This document shows positions 2,142-12,985 of a DNA stretch of 32,000 nucleotides, one piece after another. A program made the position numbers and the translations under genes. The notes under the pieces are model-generated. The model was not told where the DNA came from, made no database searches, and was given only the letters and a program-made list of their open reading frames with translations. Source of the stretch: Nitrospirota bacterium (GTDB lineage: Bacteria > Nitrospirota > Thermodesulfovibrionia > Thermodesulfovibrionales > JdFR-88); contig JAKAKS010000033.1 of NCBI GenBank assembly GCA_021813405.1, positions 12,995-44,994 on the forward strand. The letters run 5' to 3'. How positions within the stretch are numbered: the first letter of the stretch is position 1; every line of letters starts with the position of its first letter.

Positions 2142-2345
2142 GTGCTTCCTCCCTTCAATTTTTTACGCCCCCTGTAAGCCCACTTAAGAATAAAACGGGT
2201 TCCCCCCTCCCATTTTTCCTCCCACCTCCTTCCAATTCCCACTAATTAAGCTCAATATAATGGAAGCAACCCACGGTTTGCAACGTGAAGTTATGATTAT
2301 TAACAGGCTTTTTAATTGGAAGATGAAAGCAGATTAAAGGCATAA

Positions 2346-2373
2346 AAAGAGGGGGCGGAAGCCCCCTCTTTCG
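2346..2373 (-). terminator. Intrinsic terminator downstream of the YeeE/YedE gene
   Basis: On the - strand: AAAGAGGGGGC-TTCC-GCCCCCTCTTTTT. GC-rich perfect stem followed by a T tract, just after the TGA at 2388-2390. Confidence 0.9.
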
Positions 2374-2387
2374 ATTGCGGAAGGTTT

Positions 2388-3473
2388 TCAGTCCCTCATA
2401 GGTTTTATAAACCTGAAATAGACCATCGTCCAGTTGCCAAGCACAATGAAGATAGTGGAGACGATGCTTGATACAGCCAAGGTCGACACACCGGTCAACC
2501 CATGCCCGATGTTTCAGCCGCCTGCTACGGAGGCGCCAAACCCCATGAGGAGGCCGCCTCCGAATACTATTGCCAGGTCCTTTGCCGGCGGGGCGTTCAG
2601 CTTGAATTCCTTGAGGCCTTTCGAGCTGATGTATGCGCCTATCGGGACTGCCAGGATGTATATCGCGCTCCAGGTTGCAGTTATGTTGCCGAACGAGAAC
2701 ATCGGCCATGACGAATGGCTGCTGCCATTTAGCACCGCGTTGGCGAACTCGCCAAGCGGACCGGTAAATGAAATCCCCCTGGGATAACCGCCGAACACGC
2801 CGGAAGCCCACCATCCCGCGGTTGCAACTATGCCTATCAAGACACCGGCTATGGACCATTTATATCCCTTTGCCGGGCCTTTCCGGAAGGGTTTTCCCTT
2901 AAGAACGTAGATGCCCGCAATGACGGCAATTACCCCGATTAATATCCACTTGGTGGTGTCGCCTCCCCCGAAAAGGCCGTATAAGGTCAGCGCATTGCCG
3001 CTTGCGTCGTTCACCGTGTAGTGTTTCATGGCCAGATAGACCGGTTTCAATACCCCGCTGGTTGTCATGATTATCCCCATGGCGAACGCCAGTGTGGCAA
3101 GCAGGGCCGATATCAGCCCTTCGCCCACTCGGTACAGTATGCCGCTGCCGCAGCCGCTGGCAAGGACCATGCCCAGGCCGAATATATATCCGCCCACTAT
3201 GTTTGCCACGGGCGCAAAAGACTGCCTTGCAAGGGTGAAAGGACCATACTGGTCCGACCCGAGCCAGTGCATATCTTCCAGGAAATTTGCCCCTACCATG
3301 GTTATGACCAGCGCAATCAGATAGGCCCTGAAAAGGGTGACATCGTTAATGAAGATGATGTCCCTGAACGCCGTGTTCATGCAAAACCTTCCACGTTGCA
3401 ACGCAAAGCCGATTGCCAGCCCTATCACAATGGCCGAAACAGCTACTGTCCATGTGCCAGGCGAAATGCCCAT
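2388..3473 (-). CDS. YeeE/YedE family (TsuA-like thiosulfate/sulfur or selenium-type) transporter, candidate selenoprotein with in-frame TGA (Sec) at 2514-2516
   Basis: The ORF track gives 319 aa (2514-3473) ending ...GGGLLMGFGASVAGG. Reading through TGA at 2514-2516 continues U-NIGHGLTGVSTLAVSSIVSTIFIVLGNWTMVYFRFIKPMRD* to the stop at 2388. Family motifs LQRGRFCMNTAFRD and ASGCGSG carry the first two conserved Cys; the third (GGCNIGHG) is at the TGA. Confidence 0.8.
2481..2500 (-). promoter_or_regulatory. Candidate bacterial SECIS element (hairpin just 3' of the UGA)
   Basis: mRNA: UGA-AACAUCGGGCAUG-GGUUGAC-CGGUGU-GUCGACC. A 7-bp stem (one U-G pair) and 6-nt loop containing GGU, starting 14 nt after the UGA. 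Similar placement and loop to the well-known E. coli fdhF SECIS. Confidence 0.65.
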
Positions 3474-3567
3474 CGCTGCCTCCTCTTTTTAGTATCCCGT
3501 ATGCGTGGGGACCGAAGTGTTTCAATAATAAATTCATAAGGCCTTAAATATCAATGGGGGTTGTCCG

Positions 3568-4362
3568 TCATTCTCCTATCTTGGGGATTATACCCCGGTC
3601 TATAACAATCCGGTACATGCGTCTGAAGAAAAGGAGTGAAAGCGCAAGGTAAACGGCATTAAGCGCCGTGGCATCCAGAAGCTCACGGGCGGGGAAACTG
3701 GCCCCGTTTATCACTGCCCGCATCCCTTCAAACGCATGTGATGCCGGGATAAACGCGGCAACCGCGCGGAGAAACCCCGGCAGGACAGAGACGGGATAAA
3801 ACACGGCTGAGAATGGCAGAAATACAAACCCGAGCGCCCAGGCCAGGATCTCGGCCTCAAGGCCGTATCTTAGAATAAGGGCGGTCGTAAATATCCCGAT
3901 AGCCCATCCCATTGCGGTGAGATTCAAAACCAGCGGCAGCAGGGAGGCCCCAAGTTTCAGGATGCTGAAGGAATAGAGAGCCCAGCCCAGCACGGACAGC
4001 AGGGCAAACGCTGCGGCCACCTTTATAAAACTCATCACGATCAGGCCAAGGACATATTCGGCCATGGTCACCGGCGTTACGAACACGTTAATCAGGTTCC
4101 TGGACCACATGTCTTCAAGAAAAGAAACCGAGATCCCCTGTTCGGCCCTGAACAGGACATCCCACAATATGAGCGCGCCTATGAAATAGGATACGAACTT
4201 CGGCATGTTCTGGCCGGATGTCCTGCGAAGGTAAACCGTCAGGAACCCCCATAAAAGCAGGTCCATGGTGGGCCAGTATACAACTTCCATAAGCCGTGCC
4301 ATGCTTCTTTTGTAAAGATAAAGCTGTCTGAGCGCAACGGCCGCAACGTGGCTTGCTTTCAT
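3568..4362 (-). CDS. ABC-2 type transporter permease
   Basis: Probable start MKASHVAAVALRQLYLYKRSM at 4362, which overlaps the stop of the ATPase gene (ATGA); the track ORF extends upstream to 4506. Multiple TM segments and ABC-2 permease pattern (LLWGFLTVYLRR...; FPLSAVFYPVSVLPGFLRAV-like segment). Confidence 0.8.
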   Translation of the reverse strand: MKASHVAAVALRQLYLYKRSMARLMEVVYWPTMDLLLWGFLTVYLRRTSGQNMPKFVSYFIGALILWDVLFRAEQGISVSFLEDMWSRNLINVFVTPVTMAEYVLGLIVMSFIKVAAAFALLSVLGWALYSFSILKLGASLLPLVLNLTAMGWAIGIFTTALILRYGLEAEILAWALGFVFLPFSAVFYPVSVLPGFLRAVAAFIPASHAFEGMRAVINGASFPARELLDATALNAVYLALSLLFFRRMYRIVIDRGIIPKIGE

Positions 4363-5105
4363 TCGCCTTCTCCTAGCGCCTTGAAGAAAAGCTCTTCCAG
4401 GTTTTTTGCGCCGTAGCTGCCCAGAAGGTCTGCCGAGCGGCCCTGCATCAGCACCTTTCCCTCCTTCATGAAAAGCACCCTGTCCGATACCTCCTGCATC
4501 TCCCAAAGGTTATGGGACGTATAGATGACGGACATGCCTCTTTCGGAGCAGAGCGATTTCAGCATATGCCGCGTCTTCCTGGCAATCTCCGGGTCCAGCC
4601 CGGCGGTGGGCTCATCCAGAAGCAATATCTCCGGGCTGTTTATCATGGCCTTGGCCAGCGCCAGCCTCATCATCTGGCCCGATGAAAGCGTCCTTGATGG
4701 TTTGTTCTTAAGTTTTTCGAGCCCGAACATGCCAAGCGTCTCATCGCATCTTGCGGCCCTGTCCTTGATCCCGTACATCAGTGCATAGACCATCATGTTT
4801 TCACGCGGCGTAAGTGTTAGTGGCAGCGAGACATAGCTGGAGGCGAAATTCATGCGCCTTAAAATACTTGCCCTTGTTTGCGCGGAAAGCCTTGTGCCGA
4901 ATGCCTCCACCCAGCCTGAAGACGGGGAGATAAGCCCAAGAATAGTGTGGATTAAAGTAGTCTTGCCGGCGCCGTTTGGCCCAAGCACGCCAAGTATCTC
5001 TCCTTTTTCAAGCGCAAGGCTTACGTCTGAAAGGGCGTAAACCCCAGGTTCAAACGATTTCGATATCCCTGTAACCTTTAAAATCTTCATAAAGCAATCT
5101 ATCAC
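4359..5105 (-). CDS. ABC transporter ATP-binding protein
   Basis: Walker A GPNGAGKTT, signature LSSGQMMRLALAKAM, Walker B EILLLDEPTAGLD. Start may be at MIDCFM or the internal MKILKVTG. Confidence 0.92.
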   Translation of the reverse strand: MIDCFMKILKVTGISKSFEPGVYALSDVSLALEKGEILGVLGPNGAGKTTLIHTILGLISPSSGWVEAFGTRLSAQTRASILRRMNFASSYVSLPLTLTPRENMMVYALMYGIKDRAARCDETLGMFGLEKLKNKPSRTLSSGQMMRLALAKAMINSPEILLLDEPTAGLDPEIARKTRHMLKSLCSERGMSVIYTSHNLWEMQEVSDRVLFMKEGKVLMQGRSADLLGSYGAKNLEELFFKALGEGE

Positions 5106-6445: not shown

Positions 6446-7156
6446 TTATTTATCCGTGTGGCAATTTCTGCAGATTATGCTCTCGAACAGGGGATTTTTA
6501 TTGCCCGAATTCCTTAGAAATTGAACCCCGCTGCCATAATTGTTTCCGTTGTGCGGGTTGTGGCAAGTGGCGCACTGCAATGTGCCACTGAAAAGGGGAT
6601 AAGTATCTGTGTTGTAGAGTGCGCCTATGAAAAAATTTGCCAAACCGTTGAAGCCGGGTCCGTTGCCAATGTACACCCGATCTCCCGCAGGATCATTACC
6701 GATGGGTATCAGGCTCCTGAACGGCGTGACAATTCCAAGGTTTACAACCTGTCCTACTGAAAAATTAAACGGGTGTTCGTTAAAGTGGCTGGTGATATTA
6801 GGGCCGGTGTCTCCGTCATGGCAGCCCAGGCAATACATTGAGCCCATGGCCGGGTTGGGTGGGTCGTCCGCGGCTTTCTGGCCGGTTGGAATGCCTATGT
6901 TGTTGGCGGGCATGGAATCATAAGAGTAAGAAATATTATAAGTGTAGTTGGATATGCCGTCATCCCAAAGCATATGCTGATTAATTAGGTTGGAGCTGGC
7001 TATGTGCGGGTGATGGCAAAAAACGCACAACTGCCGCGTTTCGGGCAGTTTGCTTATGGAGTTCATATCGTGCTTTGATTGCATCAGGCCCATTGCAAGC
7101 GCATGGTGCACGGCTGCGGCTGCAAGGGCCAGAAACAGGATGAGAATTTTCTTCAT
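6446..7156 (-). CDS. Four-heme c-type cytochrome (CxxCH family protein)
   Basis: Signal peptide from MKKILILFLALAAAAVHHALA. Four heme motifs: CVFCH, CLGCH, CATCH, CRNCH. The track ORF starts 13 codons upstream (7195). Confidence 0.85.
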   Translation of the reverse strand: MKKILILFLALAAAAVHHALAMGLMQSKHDMNSISKLPETRQLCVFCHHPHIASSNLINQHMLWDDGISNYTYNISYSYDSMPANNIGIPTGQKAADDPPNPAMGSMYCLGCHDGDTGPNITSHFNEHPFNFSVGQVVNLGIVTPFRSLIPIGNDPAGDRVYIGNGPGFNGLANFFIGALYNTDTYPLFSGTLQCATCHNPHNGNNYGSGVQFLRNSGNKNPLFESIICRNCHTDK

Positions 7157-7453
7157 CGGTTTCCCCTGTTTTTGAGGGTCTGAATGCCGTGGCATTTTTA
7201 ACCGTTGTCTTAAGACGGGGAATGGTGCTTGCCTGATTCCAGTATAGGATGTAAATTCCGGGTTTCAATAAGTAGTTTTGCGGTTCAATTTTAAAAATTG
7301 CTCATCTGTTTCTTTTTTGGCATTTAAGCATTTGCGGGGGCATGTTTTTTAATATGCGCACCATGAATATTATTTGTTTGTGGAGGAAGGTGGCAGCGCT
7401 TGTTTCCGATACGGTTATAAAAGGATTGCGCCAGTTGCAGGCTTATAGTTTTT

Positions 7454-10400
7454 TCACTTTCCCTTTACCCTGAATGTATAAAAAATCACAGGCAGTACGA
7501 ACAGCACCAGCGGAAACTGGACCACCAGCCCGGAGATTATGGCTATTGCCAGGGGTTTCAGCATCGCGGCCCCCTGGCCGATGCCGGTTGCAAGCGGCAT
7601 TAAGGCCAGGATGGCGGCAAAAGTAGTCATGGCGATGGGCCGCATCCTGTTTTTCCCCGCGGTTATGAAGGCCTCTTTTCTGTTCATCCCTGCGGGCATT
7701 TCGTAATATTCAGACACGTAAAATATGGCTACCTCGGTTGCTATGCCGATAATCATCGTCATCCCCATCATGGCGGAGATATTTAATTCCGTGCCTGTGA
7801 TAAAAAGGCCCGCAAACACTCCCATGACGGCCAGAAGGCTGGTGATAAGTATTGCCCCGGCAACCAGAAAGCTCTCGTACAGATAAAGAAGCAGCAGGAA
7901 GATTAGCGCAACGGCGGCGGCAAACACGGCCATGAGCCCGGCAAAGGCTATCTTCTGCTGTTTGTAGAGCCCGCCAAGGCTGTAGTAAACCCCGGCAGGG
8001 AAAAGCCCCGGCCGCGCAAGCGCCTTCTTTACGTCACGGATAACAGAGCCCATGTCCCTGCCGGTTATGCGTCCGGTAACGGCGGCCATTCTTTTTAGGT
8101 TGTCCCGTGTAATCTCGGGCTGCCCGCTTATGGCAGTTAATGTGGCAATCCTGCCAAGCGGGAACAGGTGGCCGTCAGGGGCGCGCAACTGCAACTGGGC
8201 AAGCTGCCCGACGGTTGCCCTGTATTTTCCTGGAATCCAGACTCTTACGCCAACCATCTTGGGTTCCTTCTCAACCTGCGTGGTGACAATGCCGCTTAAC
8301 ATCGCGTCCAGGTCCTTTGTGACGGAATCCGGGTCCACCCCTTCCAGGGCGGCTTTCACCCTGTCCACCTTTATATCCAGGGCATCACCGGCAAGTACTA
8401 TGCCGGGGTCCACATCCACCACGCCGGGTATCTTGCTTATCATGTCCGCTATTTTAGGGGCAAGAGTATCCAGCACCTTCCCGTTATCCGAATAGATTTT
8501 TATCTCGATTGGCTGGGGGACGCCGGTAAAATCCCCTATCATGTCTTCAAGGAGCTGGGCCATTTCAATATGCAGGCCCGGTACGGATTTTTCCACGCGC
8601 TTGCGGATGTCATTCATAACCTCGCCAATTGGCTTTCTGGGGAAGGGCTTCAGGCGTATGAAGAAATCGCCCTGGTATGCCTCCGTAACACCGCCGCCAA
8701 GCTGAAGCCCGGTGCGCCTGGAATAGGTCTGCACTTCAGGTGTTGTACGGAGGATGTCTTCCACTTGTCTTAGCAGGCGGTCCGTCTCGGCCAGTGATGT
8801 GCCCGGCTCCGCCAGATAGTCCAGGATGAATCCCCCTTCGTCCATCCTGGGCATGAACCCGGAGCCAAGGTGCTTGTAGCACAGCCATCCACCGATAAGA
8901 AGTGCGGCCACAGGTATCAATACCAGCATGGGGCGGCCAAGCAGGCGGGACATGGTATTTTCGTATTTTTTGTGCGCCTTTTCCGTTACAAAACCGCCTT
9001 CCTTCTGGTCCGCATCCTTTTCACTTAGCAGATGGTCCGCAAGCAGCGGGACGGCAAGCCATGCTACAAAATATGAGATAAAAAGGCTGGCCGCCATTGT
9101 CAGGGAAAGCGCCTTGAAAAAAGCGCCGGTAACGCCGGAGAGGAAAGCCAGCGGCGTGAATATTACTATTGTGGACGCGGAGGACCCCATCAGAGGCCTT
9201 GTAAACTCCCTTGCCGCAAACATGATTTTTTCATGGTGTTCGCCGGGCGCCATACTGCCGCCGCCGCGGAGCCGCCGCACGATGTGTTCCAGCATAACGA
9301 TAGTGTCATCAATTATCAGGCCCACGGCTGCGGCCATGCCGCCAAGCGTCATCATGTTGAAGCTCTGGTGCATTATGTACAAAAGCAGCACCGAGGCCGC
9401 AAGCACCCCCGGCACAGTGATAATGGCTATAAGTGTTATCTTTACGTTCTTAAGGAAGATAAAAAGTATAACGGCCGCAAGCGCAACGCCTATCAGTATG
9501 GCGTCCCTTACACTGCCGGCCGAGGCGTTTATCAGCTGGCTCTGGTCGTACCAGTTTGCTATCTTTACCCCCGCTGGTATCTGGTTTTTAAACCCGGCCA
9601 GTTTCGCTTTCAGGTCTTTTGCTATGCGCACGGTATTTCCGCCGCGCTGCTGGTAAACATTCAGCAGCACGGCGTCGTGGCCGTCCGCTGTTACCCTTGT
9701 CCATTGCGGCACCGTTGCGCGGCTTACGGCGGCCACGTCTTCCAGCAGTACCGGCCCGTTTGCCCCGGAGCGCAAAACCGTGCTGCGGATTTCATCAAGT
9801 CCGGTAAAGCTGGTGTCGGACATTACAAGATAAAGCTTGTAATGGTCCTCCAGGCGGCCCACCGCGGTTATGACGTTTGCTGCAGAGAGGGATTTGGCCA
9901 CGTCCGAAAGCGTAAGTCCGTAAGAGGCAAGTTTTGCCGGGTCCACCGTCACCCGGTATTCCTCGGTGGTGCCGCCCTGTACCTGCACCCTTGCCACGCC
10001 GTTTACCGTGGAAAGAAGCGGGCGGAGCTGATAGAAGGCGAAATCGTGCAACGCGGTAAGGGAAAGATTGTCCGATGTCAGGCTGTAGGCCAGCACCGGG
10101 TCGATTGTGGGGTCCATGCGTTTTACCGAAAAGGTGGTACTCGAAGGCATGGATGGCATCACCTGGTTTATCGCCGATTCCACCTGAAGCAGCGATTCCG
10201 CCATATTCCGGCCCCATCCGAAATCCACCCTCACTTCCGCGCTGCCGCGGCTTGTGGTGGAACGGACGCTTACAACCCCTGGAACAGCCCTTACCGCCTG
10301 CTCCACGGGCAATGTGACCTCGATTGCCATCCGGGTGGCGGGGCGGTCCCCGGCATCCAGCTCGACGGCAATCCTTGGGAAGCTAACGTTTGGAAGCAGG

Positions 10401-10504
10401 GCAACCGGCAGCTTCACACTGCTTGCGATGCCTCCAAGCATCAGCACGGCCAGCAAAAAGAGTATTGAACGGCGGTGGTACTGAACCCATCCGGTGAAAG
10501 TCAT
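7454..10504 (-). CDS. Efflux RND transporter permease subunit (AcrB/CusA-like)
   Basis: 1016 aa, RND architecture: N-terminal TM, LPVALLPNVSFPRIAVE, central GGMAAAVGLIIDDTIVMLEHIVRRLR, C-terminal GMTMIIGIATEVAIFYVSEYYE. Confidence 0.93.
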   Translation of the reverse strand: MTFTGWVQYHRRSILFLLAVLMLGGIASSVKLPVALLPNVSFPRIAVELDAGDRPATRMAIEVTLPVEQAVRAVPGVVSVRSTTSRGSAEVRVDFGWGRNMAESLLQVESAINQVMPSMPSSTTFSVKRMDPTIDPVLAYSLTSDNLSLTALHDFAFYQLRPLLSTVNGVARVQVQGGTTEEYRVTVDPAKLASYGLTLSDVAKSLSAANVITAVGRLEDHYKLYLVMSDTSFTGLDEIRSTVLRSGANGPVLLEDVAAVSRATVPQWTRVTADGHDAVLLNVYQQRGGNTVRIAKDLKAKLAGFKNQIPAGVKIANWYDQSQLINASAGSVRDAILIGVALAAVILFIFLKNVKITLIAIITVPGVLAASVLLLYIMHQSFNMMTLGGMAAAVGLIIDDTIVMLEHIVRRLRGGGSMAPGEHHEKIMFAAREFTRPLMGSSASTIVIFTPLAFLSGVTGAFFKALSLTMAASLFISYFVAWLAVPLLADHLLSEKDADQKEGGFVTEKAHKKYENTMSRLLGRPMLVLIPVAALLIGGWLCYKHLGSGFMPRMDEGGFILDYLAEPGTSLAETDRLLRQVEDILRTTPEVQTYSRRTGLQLGGGVTEAYQGDFFIRLKPFPRKPIGEVMNDIRKRVEKSVPGLHIEMAQLLEDMIGDFTGVPQPIEIKIYSDNGKVLDTLAPKIADMISKIPGVVDVDPGIVLAGDALDIKVDRVKAALEGVDPDSVTKDLDAMLSGIVTTQVEKEPKMVGVRVWIPGKYRATVGQLAQLQLRAPDGHLFPLGRIATLTAISGQPEITRDNLKRMAAVTGRITGRDMGSVIRDVKKALARPGLFPAGVYYSLGGLYKQQKIAFAGLMAVFAAAVALIFLLLLYLYESFLVAGAILITSLLAVMGVFAGLFITGTELNISAMMGMTMIIGIATEVAIFYVSEYYEMPAGMNRKEAFITAGKNRMRPIAMTTFAAILALMPLATGIGQGAAMLKPLAIAIISGLVVQFPLVLFVLPVIFYTFRVKGK

Positions 10505-11604
10505 TTTGTATGCGGCACCTTTACGGCCATCCCGTCTTTAAGTTCGTAGTTGCCAACTACCACAACCTCATCACCCGGTTTCAGGCCCCCGCCGGATACC
10601 AGCGCCAGATTGCCGCTTTCAATGCCTCTTTGAACTATGTGCTTGACAGCTTTTCCATCGCTTACTGTATAAAGCACGTATTTCCCGCCCTCCGGCAGCA
10701 CTGCGCTCCTGGGCACAACCATCCCGTAAGAGGAGGCCATCTGTATCTTGCCCATGACATATTCGCCAAGAAGAAACCCTGCGGATTGCCCGGCCCCTGC
10801 GGAAGGCAACGCAACAAAAACATCCACAAGGCGCGTGGCGGAGTTCACCGCGCGGGAAATCTTCCTTACCCGGCCTGTTATTCCGGTTGGCAGCTGCTGG
10901 TTTACCGGCGAAAGCAGTACGGGCTGCCCTTGAACCAGCCGTCCGGCGGCGTTAGGCTCCATCCCAAGGCGTACCTCCAGGCGGTTTTGAGCTATTGTGC
11001 CAACCAGCGGCTTGCCGTCGGCAACTATAGCGCCGTCCTGAACGTTTACATAGCTTACCAGGCCGCCGGCATCTGCCCGTATTACCCGCATGCCGTCCAC
11101 GCCCATCTTTTGGAAGTTTTTCAGTTGCAATGATGCCTTCCTGAAGTCCTCCTGCGCCTTAAGCATCTGGGTGTTGGTTGCAAGCTTAAGATCGAACAGC
11201 TGCTTTACATGCGCCAGGTTCTGTTTTGAAATATCATAGGAGTTTTCCGCCTGGCCCAGTTGAAGAAGAGTATCGGGGCTGGGTTCCACCTGAATAAGCG
11301 GCTCGCCCCTGGCCACCTTCTGCCCGGCGCTCACCATTACCTGCCCCACCCTTATCTCATATGGCACGGAGGCAACCTGCACCGCGTCCGGCGCGGGGAC
11401 AACTTCGCCAAATGCCGTACCGGCGGCTGAAATCCTCTGCGTTTTTACCGGGGCAACTTCAACGCTTGCCACCGGGCCGCCCGCCTCCGGCGCCGGGCTG
11501 TCCGCGCTTGCCTTTTGCCCCCTGCCTTCAATAAGCTTGTAGCCGCCAAAAGCAAGGCAAACGGCAAAAACCGTAATAAGGACGCCCCTCCAGGGGAATT
11601 TCAT
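10501..11604 (-). CDS. RND efflux periplasmic adaptor (HlyD/MFP family)
   Basis: Likely start MKFPWRGVLITVF; barrel-sandwich and coiled-coil pattern (VRVGQVMVSAGQKVARGEPLIQVE...). 4-nt overlap with the RND gene. The track ORF extends to 11658. Confidence 0.85.
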   Translation of the reverse strand: MKFPWRGVLITVFAVCLAFGGYKLIEGRGQKASADSPAPEAGGPVASVEVAPVKTQRISAAGTAFGEVVPAPDAVQVASVPYEIRVGQVMVSAGQKVARGEPLIQVEPSPDTLLQLGQAENSYDISKQNLAHVKQLFDLKLATNTQMLKAQEDFRKASLQLKNFQKMGVDGMRVIRADAGGLVSYVNVQDGAIVADGKPLVGTIAQNRLEVRLGMEPNAAGRLVQGQPVLLSPVNQQLPTGITGRVRKISRAVNSATRLVDVFVALPSAGAGQSAGFLLGEYVMGKIQMASSYGMVVPRSAVLPEGGKYVLYTVSDGKAVKHIVQRGIESGNLALVSGGGLKPGDEVVVVGNYELKDGMAVKVPHTK

Positions 11605-11617
11605 CAGCGCATACCTC

Positions 11618-12985
11618 CTATTGCAAATACTCTCCGGCGCTGATCTCCAGCGCCACATGCAGTTCCGCCAGCGTCAGCCTGAGCTTCAGCGCGTCCAGCC
11701 TCCTGGTGGCCAGCCTGTTTACCTCGTTGTAATAACTGAGAGCGTCTATGTTGCCCTCAAGAAAACCGTTATACGACACGGATACAAGCTTCCCCAGCGC
11801 CGCCACGGACTTGCCGGCCGCGCTTATCTGGGCCTTAACCGCTTTAATGTTTGCCAGTATGGCCGCTGCATCCGCCCGCGCCTGGAATATCCTGTTCATA
11901 TATTCGTCATACAGCATTTGCCTTGTGGCTTTCTCTATGGCTATATGGCCCTGGTTACGATCGAAAAAAGGCAGTTTAATGGACAAGGAAAAGCCCGTTG
12001 ATATAACGTTGGTATTGTCCCTGGCATGGGAGAACCCGATGCCTATGCTTGGGAACTGTGCGCGCACGGCCTCCCTTAACGCTGCATCCTGGCTCTGGTA
12101 ACCCTGTTTCAAGGCAAGCAGGTCCAGCCTCCTGTTTTCAATCCCTTTCATTATGCCGTTCAGCGAAGGAAGGGTTTTCAAGGCCGGAAACGCCATGTTC
12201 TTTTTCAGCGGGATATAACTTTTGGGGGGAAACCCAAGCACAAGGTTAAGCCTTAGCCGTTCCTGTTCCAGTTTCTGGCTGGTGCTGAGGGCTGTGGAAT
12301 GCGCGCTTCTAAGCGTTGATTCCACCGCATCCAGATCAACAATCGTCATATTGCCTTCGTCAACTGCTTTTTTTATGGCTTGCAGGTTCTGAAGCAGAGT
12401 GTTCTCCTCATTTTTCGCAATCTTCAGCTGCTGCTCCAGCATCATTACCCGATAAACTTCCAGCCTTGCGGACTGGGCCACCTGCCATTCCTGCCAGACT
12501 ATATCAAGGCTGACGGATTCCTTATTGGCCTGCGCCGCGTCAATTTTTGGCCCGCGTGTAAGCAGGGATTTTATGATGCTCCAGTCCAGCCCCAGCCCGT
12601 AGGCGTTCACTGTGCCCTGGTCGCTGCCGCCGCTAGGCACATCCAGGCTGTAACTGAATGCCGGGTTGGGAAGGATGCCAGCCTGCAAAAGCTGGGCATT
12701 GGCAATACCAAGCCGGTCCCTTTCGGCGCGAAGCTGCGGATTTGCGATAACGGCTATAATTGCCGCGTCCTGGGCGGAGATGCCTTTTGCAAAATCTATA
12801 TTTCGCGGCTTGAGGACGGGATGCTTTATCTGCCTGGCCTTTATCCGCAATGATTGAATATCAGGGGCCGCAAGCCTGCCGGAGATGGCCTGCCGGTTAA
12901 TGGGCTTCGGCTGATATATTGCGCAGCCGCAAAGCATGGCAAGCGGCACTATGCATAACAGCTTTTTTATCATGGGAGATCGCAT
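11618..12985 (-). CDS. TolC-like outer membrane efflux lipoprotein
   Basis: Lipobox MIKKLLCIVPLAMLCGC; OEP-type helical repeats (ARLEVYRVMMLEQQLKIAKNEENTLLQNLQAIKKAVDEGNMTIVDLDAVES). The start may be at the internal MIKKLL. Confidence 0.88.
   Translation of the reverse strand: MRSPMIKKLLCIVPLAMLCGCAIYQPKPINRQAISGRLAAPDIQSLRIKARQIKHPVLKPRNIDFAKGISAQDAAIIAVIANPQLRAERDRLGIANAQLLQAGILPNPAFSYSLDVPSGGSDQGTVNAYGLGLDWSIIKSLLTRGPKIDAAQANKESVSLDIVWQEWQVAQSARLEVYRVMMLEQQLKIAKNEENTLLQNLQAIKKAVDEGNMTIVDLDAVESTLRSAHSTALSTSQKLEQERLRLNLVLGFPPKSYIPLKKNMAFPALKTLPSLNGIMKGIENRRLDLLALKQGYQSQDAALREAVRAQFPSIGIGFSHARDNTNVISTGFSLSIKLPFFDRNQGHIAIEKATRQMLYDEYMNRIFQARADAAAILANIKAVKAQISAAGKSVAALGKLVSVSYNGFLEGNIDALSYYNEVNRLATRRLDALKLRLTLAELHVALEISAGEYLQ

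Follow-up and report, generated by a model that had tools for sequence, protein, structure and literature searches.

A YeeE/TsuA-type transporter gene of a Nitrospirota bacterium with a probable selenocysteine codon at the third conserved cysteine position

The stretch of DNA analysed here (32,000 nucleotides from a Nitrospirota bacterium, contig JAKAKS010000033.1; hereafter the window) contains, on its minus strand, a gene of the YeeE/YedE transporter family which carries an in-frame TGA at the position of its third conserved cysteine. On comparative evidence, this UGA (2516-2514) almost certainly encodes selenocysteine (Sec) rather than a stop, and the public annotation truncates the gene. 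It is highly probable that the complete product is a 361-residue YeeE/TsuA-type transporter in which the Sec residue, inserted with the aid of a selenocysteine insertion sequence (SECIS), acts at the entry site of the transport pathway.

A first-pass annotation of the window had proposed this gene as a candidate selenoprotein. The proposal is now supported by a Cys/Sec pair, by an alignment column in which TGA is the only stop codon, by selection on the codons beyond it, by a SECIS-type hairpin, by the use of the standard genetic code and by recurrence in independent assemblies.

The in-frame UGA and its conservation among relatives

The gene starts with the ATG at 3473 of a minus-strand open reading frame (ORF). 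The ORF track ends at codon 320, so that 319 residues are called. Beyond the TGA, 41 more codons follow in frame (NIGHGLTGVSTLAVSSIVSTIFIVLGNWTMVYFRFIKPMRD) up to a TGA at 2390-2388, which would be the real stop, and the translated read-through product has 361 residues with U at position 320. The elements on which the following argument relies are listed below.

2388..3473, minus strand: full coding sequence of the putative Sec-containing YeeE/TsuA-type transporter (translation; Pfam PF04143 positions 1-310 of 310; alignment to 6LEO)
2514..2516, minus strand: in-frame UGA, proposed Sec codon, equivalent to C293 of S. thermophila YeeE (StYeeE) and C302 of E. coli TsuA
3381..3383, minus strand: codon of the first conserved cysteine (Cys1), C31 (motif RGRFCMN), which corresponds to the cytoplasm-side residue C22 of StYeeE; always TGC or TGT in the related loci
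3150..3152, minus strand: TGC codon of the second conserved cysteine (Cys2), C108 (motif ASGCGSG), which corresponds to the mid-pathway residue C91 of StYeeE
2478..2504, minus strand: bacterial SECIS (bSECIS)-type hairpin within the coding sequence (folding; comparison across 13 TGA genes)

The first-pass annotation had described a stop at codon 320 (TGA, 2514-2516), a continuation in the same frame to a second stop at 2388, two further cysteines encoded normally (RGRFCMN and ASGCGSG) and a terminator after the gene. Coordinates and sequence were confirmed, translation gave the expected continuation, and both cysteines are specified by ordinary Cys codons. A terminator-like, G+C-rich hairpin (stem 2366-2350) followed by a T-run was also found directly beyond the second stop. 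When the 361-residue read-through product was compared with the Pfam Sulf_transp model (PF04143), it covered positions 1-310 of 310 with 226.3 bits against a cut-off of 27 (E=8e-67). The domain is completed by the read-through only, the last part of it being lost from the truncated product.

The same annotation had placed the TGA exactly on the conserved third Cys and had proposed, as a check, an alignment with homologues in search of Cys/Sec pairs. A scan of GTDB species-representative genomes yielded 80 loci, and about 77 related genes were compared at the third-Cys column. The codon is TGA in 12 of them (L001, L002, L003, L004, L006, L012, L041, L049, L063, L071, L072 and L073), TGC or TGT in all others, and TAA or TAG in none. 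With the window gene, this gives 13 TGA genes and about 67 Cys genes (TGC/TGT). Every homologue examined has either Cys or TGA at this column, which corresponds to C293 of the 6LEO structure, so the placement proved to be correct. Such a coincidence with the Cys column, repeated in 12 other genomes, goes far beyond what chance would give.

The 34 residues that follow the third-Cys codon are conserved in every related gene of the scan. In each TGA gene, the post-TGA frame runs for 37-42 codons, without frameshifts, to the normal C-terminus of the family. The pairwise ratios of nonsynonymous to synonymous substitution rates (dN/dS) of these codons, relative to the window, lie between 0.05 and 0.16, which indicates strong purifying selection. 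The absence of decay past the TGA, noticed at first in the window gene, thus extends to its relatives, and the frameshifts or decay which had been named as refuting observations were seen in none of the TGA genes. Among these genes the final stops vary between TGA, TAA and TAG, while the only stop codon used at the third-Cys column is TGA. A protein search gave a similar picture: at least 12 clusters, with 57-98% identity, all terminate exactly at ...GFGAxxxGG, and where these short clusters end the full-length relatives carry on with C-NIGHGLTG.

The Sec genes belong to several Nitrospirota/Thermodesulfovibrionales lineages and to metagenome-assembled genomes (MAGs) of Desulfobacterales/deltaproteobacterial affiliation. 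A neighbour-joining tree divides the Sec forms into four clades that are distinct from one another and each surrounded by Cys forms; this tree does not include L063, which was counted as a fifth clade because of its divergent sequence. The distribution points to a repeated exchange between Cys and Sec at the third-Cys column, in at least five clades. The closest Cys form (L005) shows no synteny with the window, and for this reason an in-place switch from Cys to Sec is not traceable. At the Cys1 and Cys2 positions, no TGA was found in the YeeE genes of the 80 loci, the search returning two spurious minus-strand matches.

One of the MAGs, DBS2-1.bin112, contributes two contigs (L041 and L049) and hence two Sec-YeeE paralogues in one genome. 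Three or four genes for universal stress proteins, together with one for a sigma-54-type activator, stand before each of these two yeeE genes.

The SECIS-type hairpin and the alternative readings of the UGA

The published bSECIS model describes a loop of 3-9 nt, a stem of 4-16 bp and a UGA-to-loop distance of 16-37 nt (PMC13188914 Fig. 2A), with a G at loop position 1-2 followed by G or U, and a minimum free energy of at most -7.5 kcal/mol (PMC13188914). In the window, the hairpin is composed of lower C-G and A-U pairs, a one-base bulge and an upper stem of 7-8 bp (GGGUUGAC/GUCGACCU). Its apical loop, C-GGUG-U at 2493-2488, starts 20 nt past the UGA, and its energy is -10.5 kcal/mol. All 13 TGA genes lie within the limits of the model on every count, with a loop of 4-6 nt, a stem of 7-8 bp, the GG, the distance of 20 nt and energies of -8.0 to -11.4 kcal/mol.

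When the 13 TGA genes were aligned, 88% of the cells were paired, as compared with 20-47% after the 3' partners had been slid. Seven of the eight designated pairs are formed in every Sec gene; the mean in 67 Cys genes is 3.3 of eight, with a maximum of 6. Three Cys genes (L005, L060 and L068) encode the same peptide, NIGHGLTGVSTL, as the Sec genes and yet form only 2, 2 and 5 pairs, respectively. In view of these identical-peptide genes without the hairpin, synonymous codon choice appears to maintain the structure only where the codon is TGA. One compensatory change, U-A to C-G, was observed (L012 and L063); most hairpin columns do not vary at all, as they specify a conserved peptide at the same time.

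The fold energy of the whole segment, calculated for the single sequence, was not significant (z=0.38), because energy alone cannot set apart such G+C-rich coding sequence. As the single-sequence energy is uninformative, the comparative contrast between Sec and Cys genes was needed. An Rfam scan of 2300-2650 gave sub-threshold small-RNA noise over the terminator only, and no match to a SECIS model was reported. Another hairpin, CGGUCA-CGGGU-UGACCG, starts 7 nt after the UGA and is formed in L001-L006 and L071-L073. It was rejected as a conserved element, since L012, L041, L049 and L063 lack it and the window has only a weakened form.

Several observations weigh against a SECIS-aided Sec acting at the entry site. 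The difference in pairing between Sec and Cys genes was evaluated by a Mann-Whitney contrast (p=8e-9) which ignores phylogeny, and the covariation of the hairpin is thin, a two-sided change being present at one pair only. Neither the 32-kb window nor any of the 12 related Sec loci was found to contain selA, selB, selD or tRNA-Sec, and ARAGORN likewise reported no tRNA-Sec in them; for such short stretches, the lack of a Sec machinery gene is expected. In the window, neither a TusA/YeeD partner nor any sulfur or selenium metabolism gene adjoins yeeE. Moreover, the published YeeE model proposes guidance of the substrate by hydrogen bonds rather than covalent chemistry (PMC7449682). Indirect support for Sec comes from the phylum of the window, in which Sec is used: Peng et al. 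2016 (PMC5029168 supplement) list 3-4 selenoproteins for two Thermodesulfovibrio species (phylum Nitrospirae).

If the TGA were a nonsense mutation, the gene would be a pseudogene or a truly truncated gene, and the 319-residue product, if made, would be inactive. All public gene calls do end at the TGA, and the window itself shows no Sec machinery. Nevertheless, the same nonsense codon stands at an invariant column in 13 species-level genomes from at least five clades, never as TAA or TAG, and the tail, with its low dN/dS of 0.05-0.16 and no frameshifts, ends after 37-42 codons at a normal C-terminus; a pseudogene is accordingly very unlikely. An error of sequencing or assembly would need to alter one base only, as TGA is a single base away from a Cys codon. 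However, the identical truncated product occurs on 13 contigs of at least four independent assemblies, including three from ENA and GCA_027414885.1, and 12 other genomes, assembled by different groups, have TGA at the third-Cys column. The recurrence of exactly the same truncated product in independent assemblies excludes such an error, to which we attach practically no probability. The same holds for a genetic code that assigns an amino acid to TGA (code 4 or code 25). This was another observation that the first-pass annotation had named as refuting, and nothing beyond the in-frame TGA itself speaks for it. Of the 26 well-supported genes of the window, 13 have TGA as their final codon and show full-length Pfam coverage, and a single in-frame TGA was counted in 9515 codons, versus 94 TGG. 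Since TGA is an ordinary stop elsewhere in the window, an alternative code is excluded, and the window uses the standard one.

The UGA might also be read through without selenium, either by near-cognate suppression with tRNA-Trp or tRNA-Cys or by a local recoding unrelated to SelB. UGA is the leakiest stop codon, and no Sec machinery gene was detected in the window or the related Sec loci. On the other hand, the hairpin fits a SelB-type bSECIS in position, loop and energy and is kept only in TGA genes. The replaced Cys is not even replaceable by Ser in E. coli TsuA, so that a Trp would be non-functional there, and leaky read-through would yield just a few percent of full-length product. In addition, short-form members of the family already have an accepted Sec at the homologous position. 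For these reasons, read-through without selenium is regarded as improbable, and decoding of the UGA as Sec as the preferred reading.

Other read-through ORFs with an in-frame TGA were looked for both in the window and in the Sec loci; the hits were mostly noise, with one convincing candidate, in L073, on the same contig as a Sec-YeeE gene. This minus-strand, HdrA-like ORF has its TGA at 1928, in the context GVFVCH-U-GINIGG. It spans 1103 codons (554 aa before the TGA and 547 aa after it) and contains 2Fe-2S, 4Fe-4S and pyridine-nucleotide-disulfide oxidoreductase domains. It is probably a second selenoprotein on that contig and adds to the indirect support for Sec.

Position of the residue in the transporter and comparison with known systems

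In order to locate the replaced residue, the read-through product was compared with the PDB by phmmer. Residues 14-357 align to residues 5-330 of StYeeE (from Spirochaeta thermophila; 6LEO) with an E-value of 3e-42, and the segment ASVAGG-[TGA]-NIGHGLTGV of the window is paired with AVTAGG-C293-NIGHFLTGV. C31, C108 and U320 correspond to C22, C91 and C293 of StYeeE; all three pathway positions are thus kept, the third one as Sec.

C293 is situated at the bottom of the periplasmic indentation of StYeeE and, in the crystal structure, makes contact with thiosulfate bound at position I (PMC7449682). Its replacement by Ala abolishes complementation (PMC7449682). In E. coli, its counterpart C302 is likewise indispensable, and Ser does not substitute for it (PMC7449682). 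In the work on the YeeE-YeeD system, C293 is designated the 'first cysteine' of the line C293-C91-C22-YeeD C17 (PMC11073785). The suggestion of the first-pass annotation that a Sec at this position would lie in the transport path is borne out by the alignment, the column being that of an essential, periplasm-side, thiosulfate-contacting residue (PMC7449682). As a consequence, a product that stopped at codon 320 would be deprived of the essential C293-equivalent residue and of the last transmembrane helix.

Taken as a selenoprotein, the gene would specify a nine-helix YeeE/TsuA-type inner-membrane transporter of 361 residues. The UGA at 2516-2514 would be decoded as Sec with the help of the hairpin situated 13-39 nt downstream, within the coding sequence, and Sec320 would take the place of the 'first' pathway cysteine, C293 of StYeeE. 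The selenol(ate) of Sec320 could then serve as the outward-facing residue that captures thiosulfate, sulfane sulfur or a selenium compound, and the captured substrate would be handed inward to Cys108 and then to Cys31. Without Sec insertion, translation would stop at codon 320, and a functional transporter would be obtained only in the presence of selenium and of the Sec machinery. Because translation ends at codon 320 in the absence of Sec, selenium may control the production of a sulfur or selenium importer.

Where Cys and Sec replace one another in nature, the cysteine is usually nucleophilic or redox-active, which makes covalent Se-S chemistry at Sec320 plausible. A stronger nucleophile at the entry would favour covalent capture of the selenosulfide or persulfide type over mere hydrogen bonding. 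It is conceivable, although we incline to doubt it, that the third-Cys residue is a redox-active nucleophile in a covalent selenosulfide/persulfide relay running from Sec320 to Cys108 and Cys31, with an ExtJ-like protein as donor in several lineages. The recurrent Cys/Sec exchange at this outermost pathway position would fit such a relay, by which YeeE-type proteins would import chalcogen instead of guiding it through hydrogen bonds.

The first-pass annotation had left open whether a Sec form of this family had been described before. It had: a 'YeeE/YedE family' selenoprotein is catalogued with PF04143, the motif GUxSG and one Sec, as WP_012471001.1 (PMC13188914, PMC9312934). It also figures in the PMC5029168 supplement (five occurrences) and in the PMC12013277 supplement; a YeeE/YedE selenoprotein family is absent from the main texts of PMC2398784 and PMC5029168. 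The segment ADG-U-PSGHGLSG of WP_012471001.1 aligns with AGG-U-NIGHGLTG of the window, and the two Sec positions are homologous, as are the corresponding positions of the Cys homologues. An earlier assignment of GUxSG to the second Cys (ASG-C-GSG), which would have made the Sec position of the window new, was discarded, as the reference alignment shows the third Cys.

The two forms nevertheless differ in several respects. WP_012471001.1 has 172 aa (deep-Sep supplement) and covers Pfam positions 175-310 only, in the manner of a PmpA-type half-transporter, whereas the window protein has 361 residues and three Cys positions; the other two catalogued YeeE/YedE Sec sequences that were compared are also short (177 and 180 aa). 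Over the shared half, the window protein and WP_012471001.1 are 27% identical. The window motif, GUNIG, does not fit the catalogued GUxSG, and the window belongs to the Nitrospirota while the catalogued forms are from Geobacter/Desulfobacterota. No published full-length Sec YeeE was found in a comparison that covered fewer than all five genomes of the PMC5029168 supplement. Thus, Sec at the third-Cys column of the YeeE/YedE family is already known, and the full-length, three-Cys, TsuA-type form is the addition made here.

With TsuA/YeeE (6LEO/6LEP/8J4C; E. coli TsuA), the window protein shares a full-length alignment, the three pathway Cys positions and the GGCNIGH(x)LTG loop. It differs by the Sec in place of C293 and by the lack of an adjoining gene for TsuB/YeeD (TusA-like), and its scores against the NCBIfam TsuA models NF052577 and NF041049 are below the cut-offs (229.6 vs 400 and 144.2 vs 645, respectively). 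By these model scores, it is not an NCBIfam TsuA equivalog. YedE/FdhT, for which a link to selenium metabolism has been proposed (PMC5322559), belongs to the same superfamily. The matches of the window protein to the YedE/FdhT models NF033796 and TIGR04112 are partial and weak (68.1 vs 350 and 37.8 vs 200), and neither YedF nor selD is a neighbour of the window gene. Judged from these features, the protein is not a YedE/FdhT orthologue. The SoxT proteins are full-length YeeE-like importers of sulfur oxidisers, and the sulfur donor proposed for them is a periplasmic carrier with a Cys in its C-terminal region (PMC11582611). They resemble the window protein in being full-length and YeeE-like with three conserved Cys positions, but the window offers no sox, sHdr or regulator context.

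In public records, this gene and at least 12 related clusters appear as truncated 'YeeE/YedE family proteins' of 319-331 residues (349 in one case), while the real products would have about 360 residues, including Sec. On account of these truncated annotations, selenoproteome counts for Nitrospirota and Thermodesulfovibrionia are too low. The analysis therefore offers both a correction of the annotation and a mechanistic hypothesis for a structurally solved transporter: a Cys/Sec pair at its substrate-touching entry residue leads to a testable prediction on the handling of thiosulfate, sulfane sulfur and possibly selenium.

Gene neighbourhood and flanking signals

Three further signals were found around the coding sequence.

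3479..3485, minus strand: ribosome-binding site GAGGAGG, 5 nt before the ATG (read from the sequence)
3525..3554, minus strand: sigma-70-like promoter match TTGATA-18-TATTAT, 10/12, a consensus match only, in the 94-nt gap after the ABC-2 permease gene
2341..2372, minus strand: intrinsic-terminator-like hairpin AGAGGGGGC-TTCC-GCCCCCTCT with a T-run, about 15 nt past the presumed true stop

In the window and in its closest relatives (L001-L004 and L006), the gene order on one strand is the following: ABC ATPase, ABC-2 permease, YeeE(Sec), beta-propeller protein and FtsX/MacB-type permease. The same-strand set of the window clade also includes a TPR protein and a second ABC ATPase after the FtsX-type permease. 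This conserved set around yeeE(Sec), located at 3568-5105 and 1059-2141 of the window (both minus strand) and at L081:12585-15036, contains no obvious sulfur or selenium gene.

No TusA-like ORF with the CPxP motif was found in the window or adjoining any Sec form. Only one separate, all-Cys clade (L011, L019, L032, L033, L042-L047, L050, L051, L055, L062, L068, L070 and L074) has a TusA/YeeD-like gene, with the motif LDTLGRVCPYP, about 330 nt before yeeE; this is the canonical TsuB-TsuA arrangement.

In several Cys and Sec clades, a gene 12-141 nt past the end of yeeE encodes a small signal-peptide protein ending in ...Gly-Cys-COOH. The scores of this protein against NCBIfam NF040942 ('selenite/tellurite reduction operon protein ExtJ') are 72 and 66 bits and thus exceed the cut-off of 52.5. 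In L073, multihaem cytochromes come after the ExtJ-like gene; the window clade has no ExtJ-like neighbour. The ExtJ-like genes, all downstream of yeeE, are listed below.

L012:8215-8538, L063:3010-3309, L072:1587-1838 and L073:10978-11214, plus strand: ExtJ-like genes of the Sec-locus set
L007:11209-11514, L019:5417-5713, L027:1497-1754 and L079:1313-1636, plus strand: ExtJ-like genes of further loci

ExtJ has no known function in Geobacter (PMC5877670). The conserved C-terminal Cys on a periplasmic ExtJ-like protein encoded beside a YeeE importer suggests a carrier of sulfur or selenium, and its Gly-Cys end could deliver either element to the transporter in several lineages. If such a donor were confirmed, the YeeE transporter would be tied to the ext system of selenite/tellurite reduction.

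Farther along the minus strand of the window, a c-type cytochrome gene with paired CXXCH motifs (6446-7195) adjoins genes for resistance-nodulation-division (RND) efflux. The latter form a complete set at 7454-12985 (AcrB-like protein, membrane-fusion protein and outer-membrane factor), together with a two-component system. The cytochrome, RND efflux and two-component genes appear to be unrelated to Sec-YeeE.

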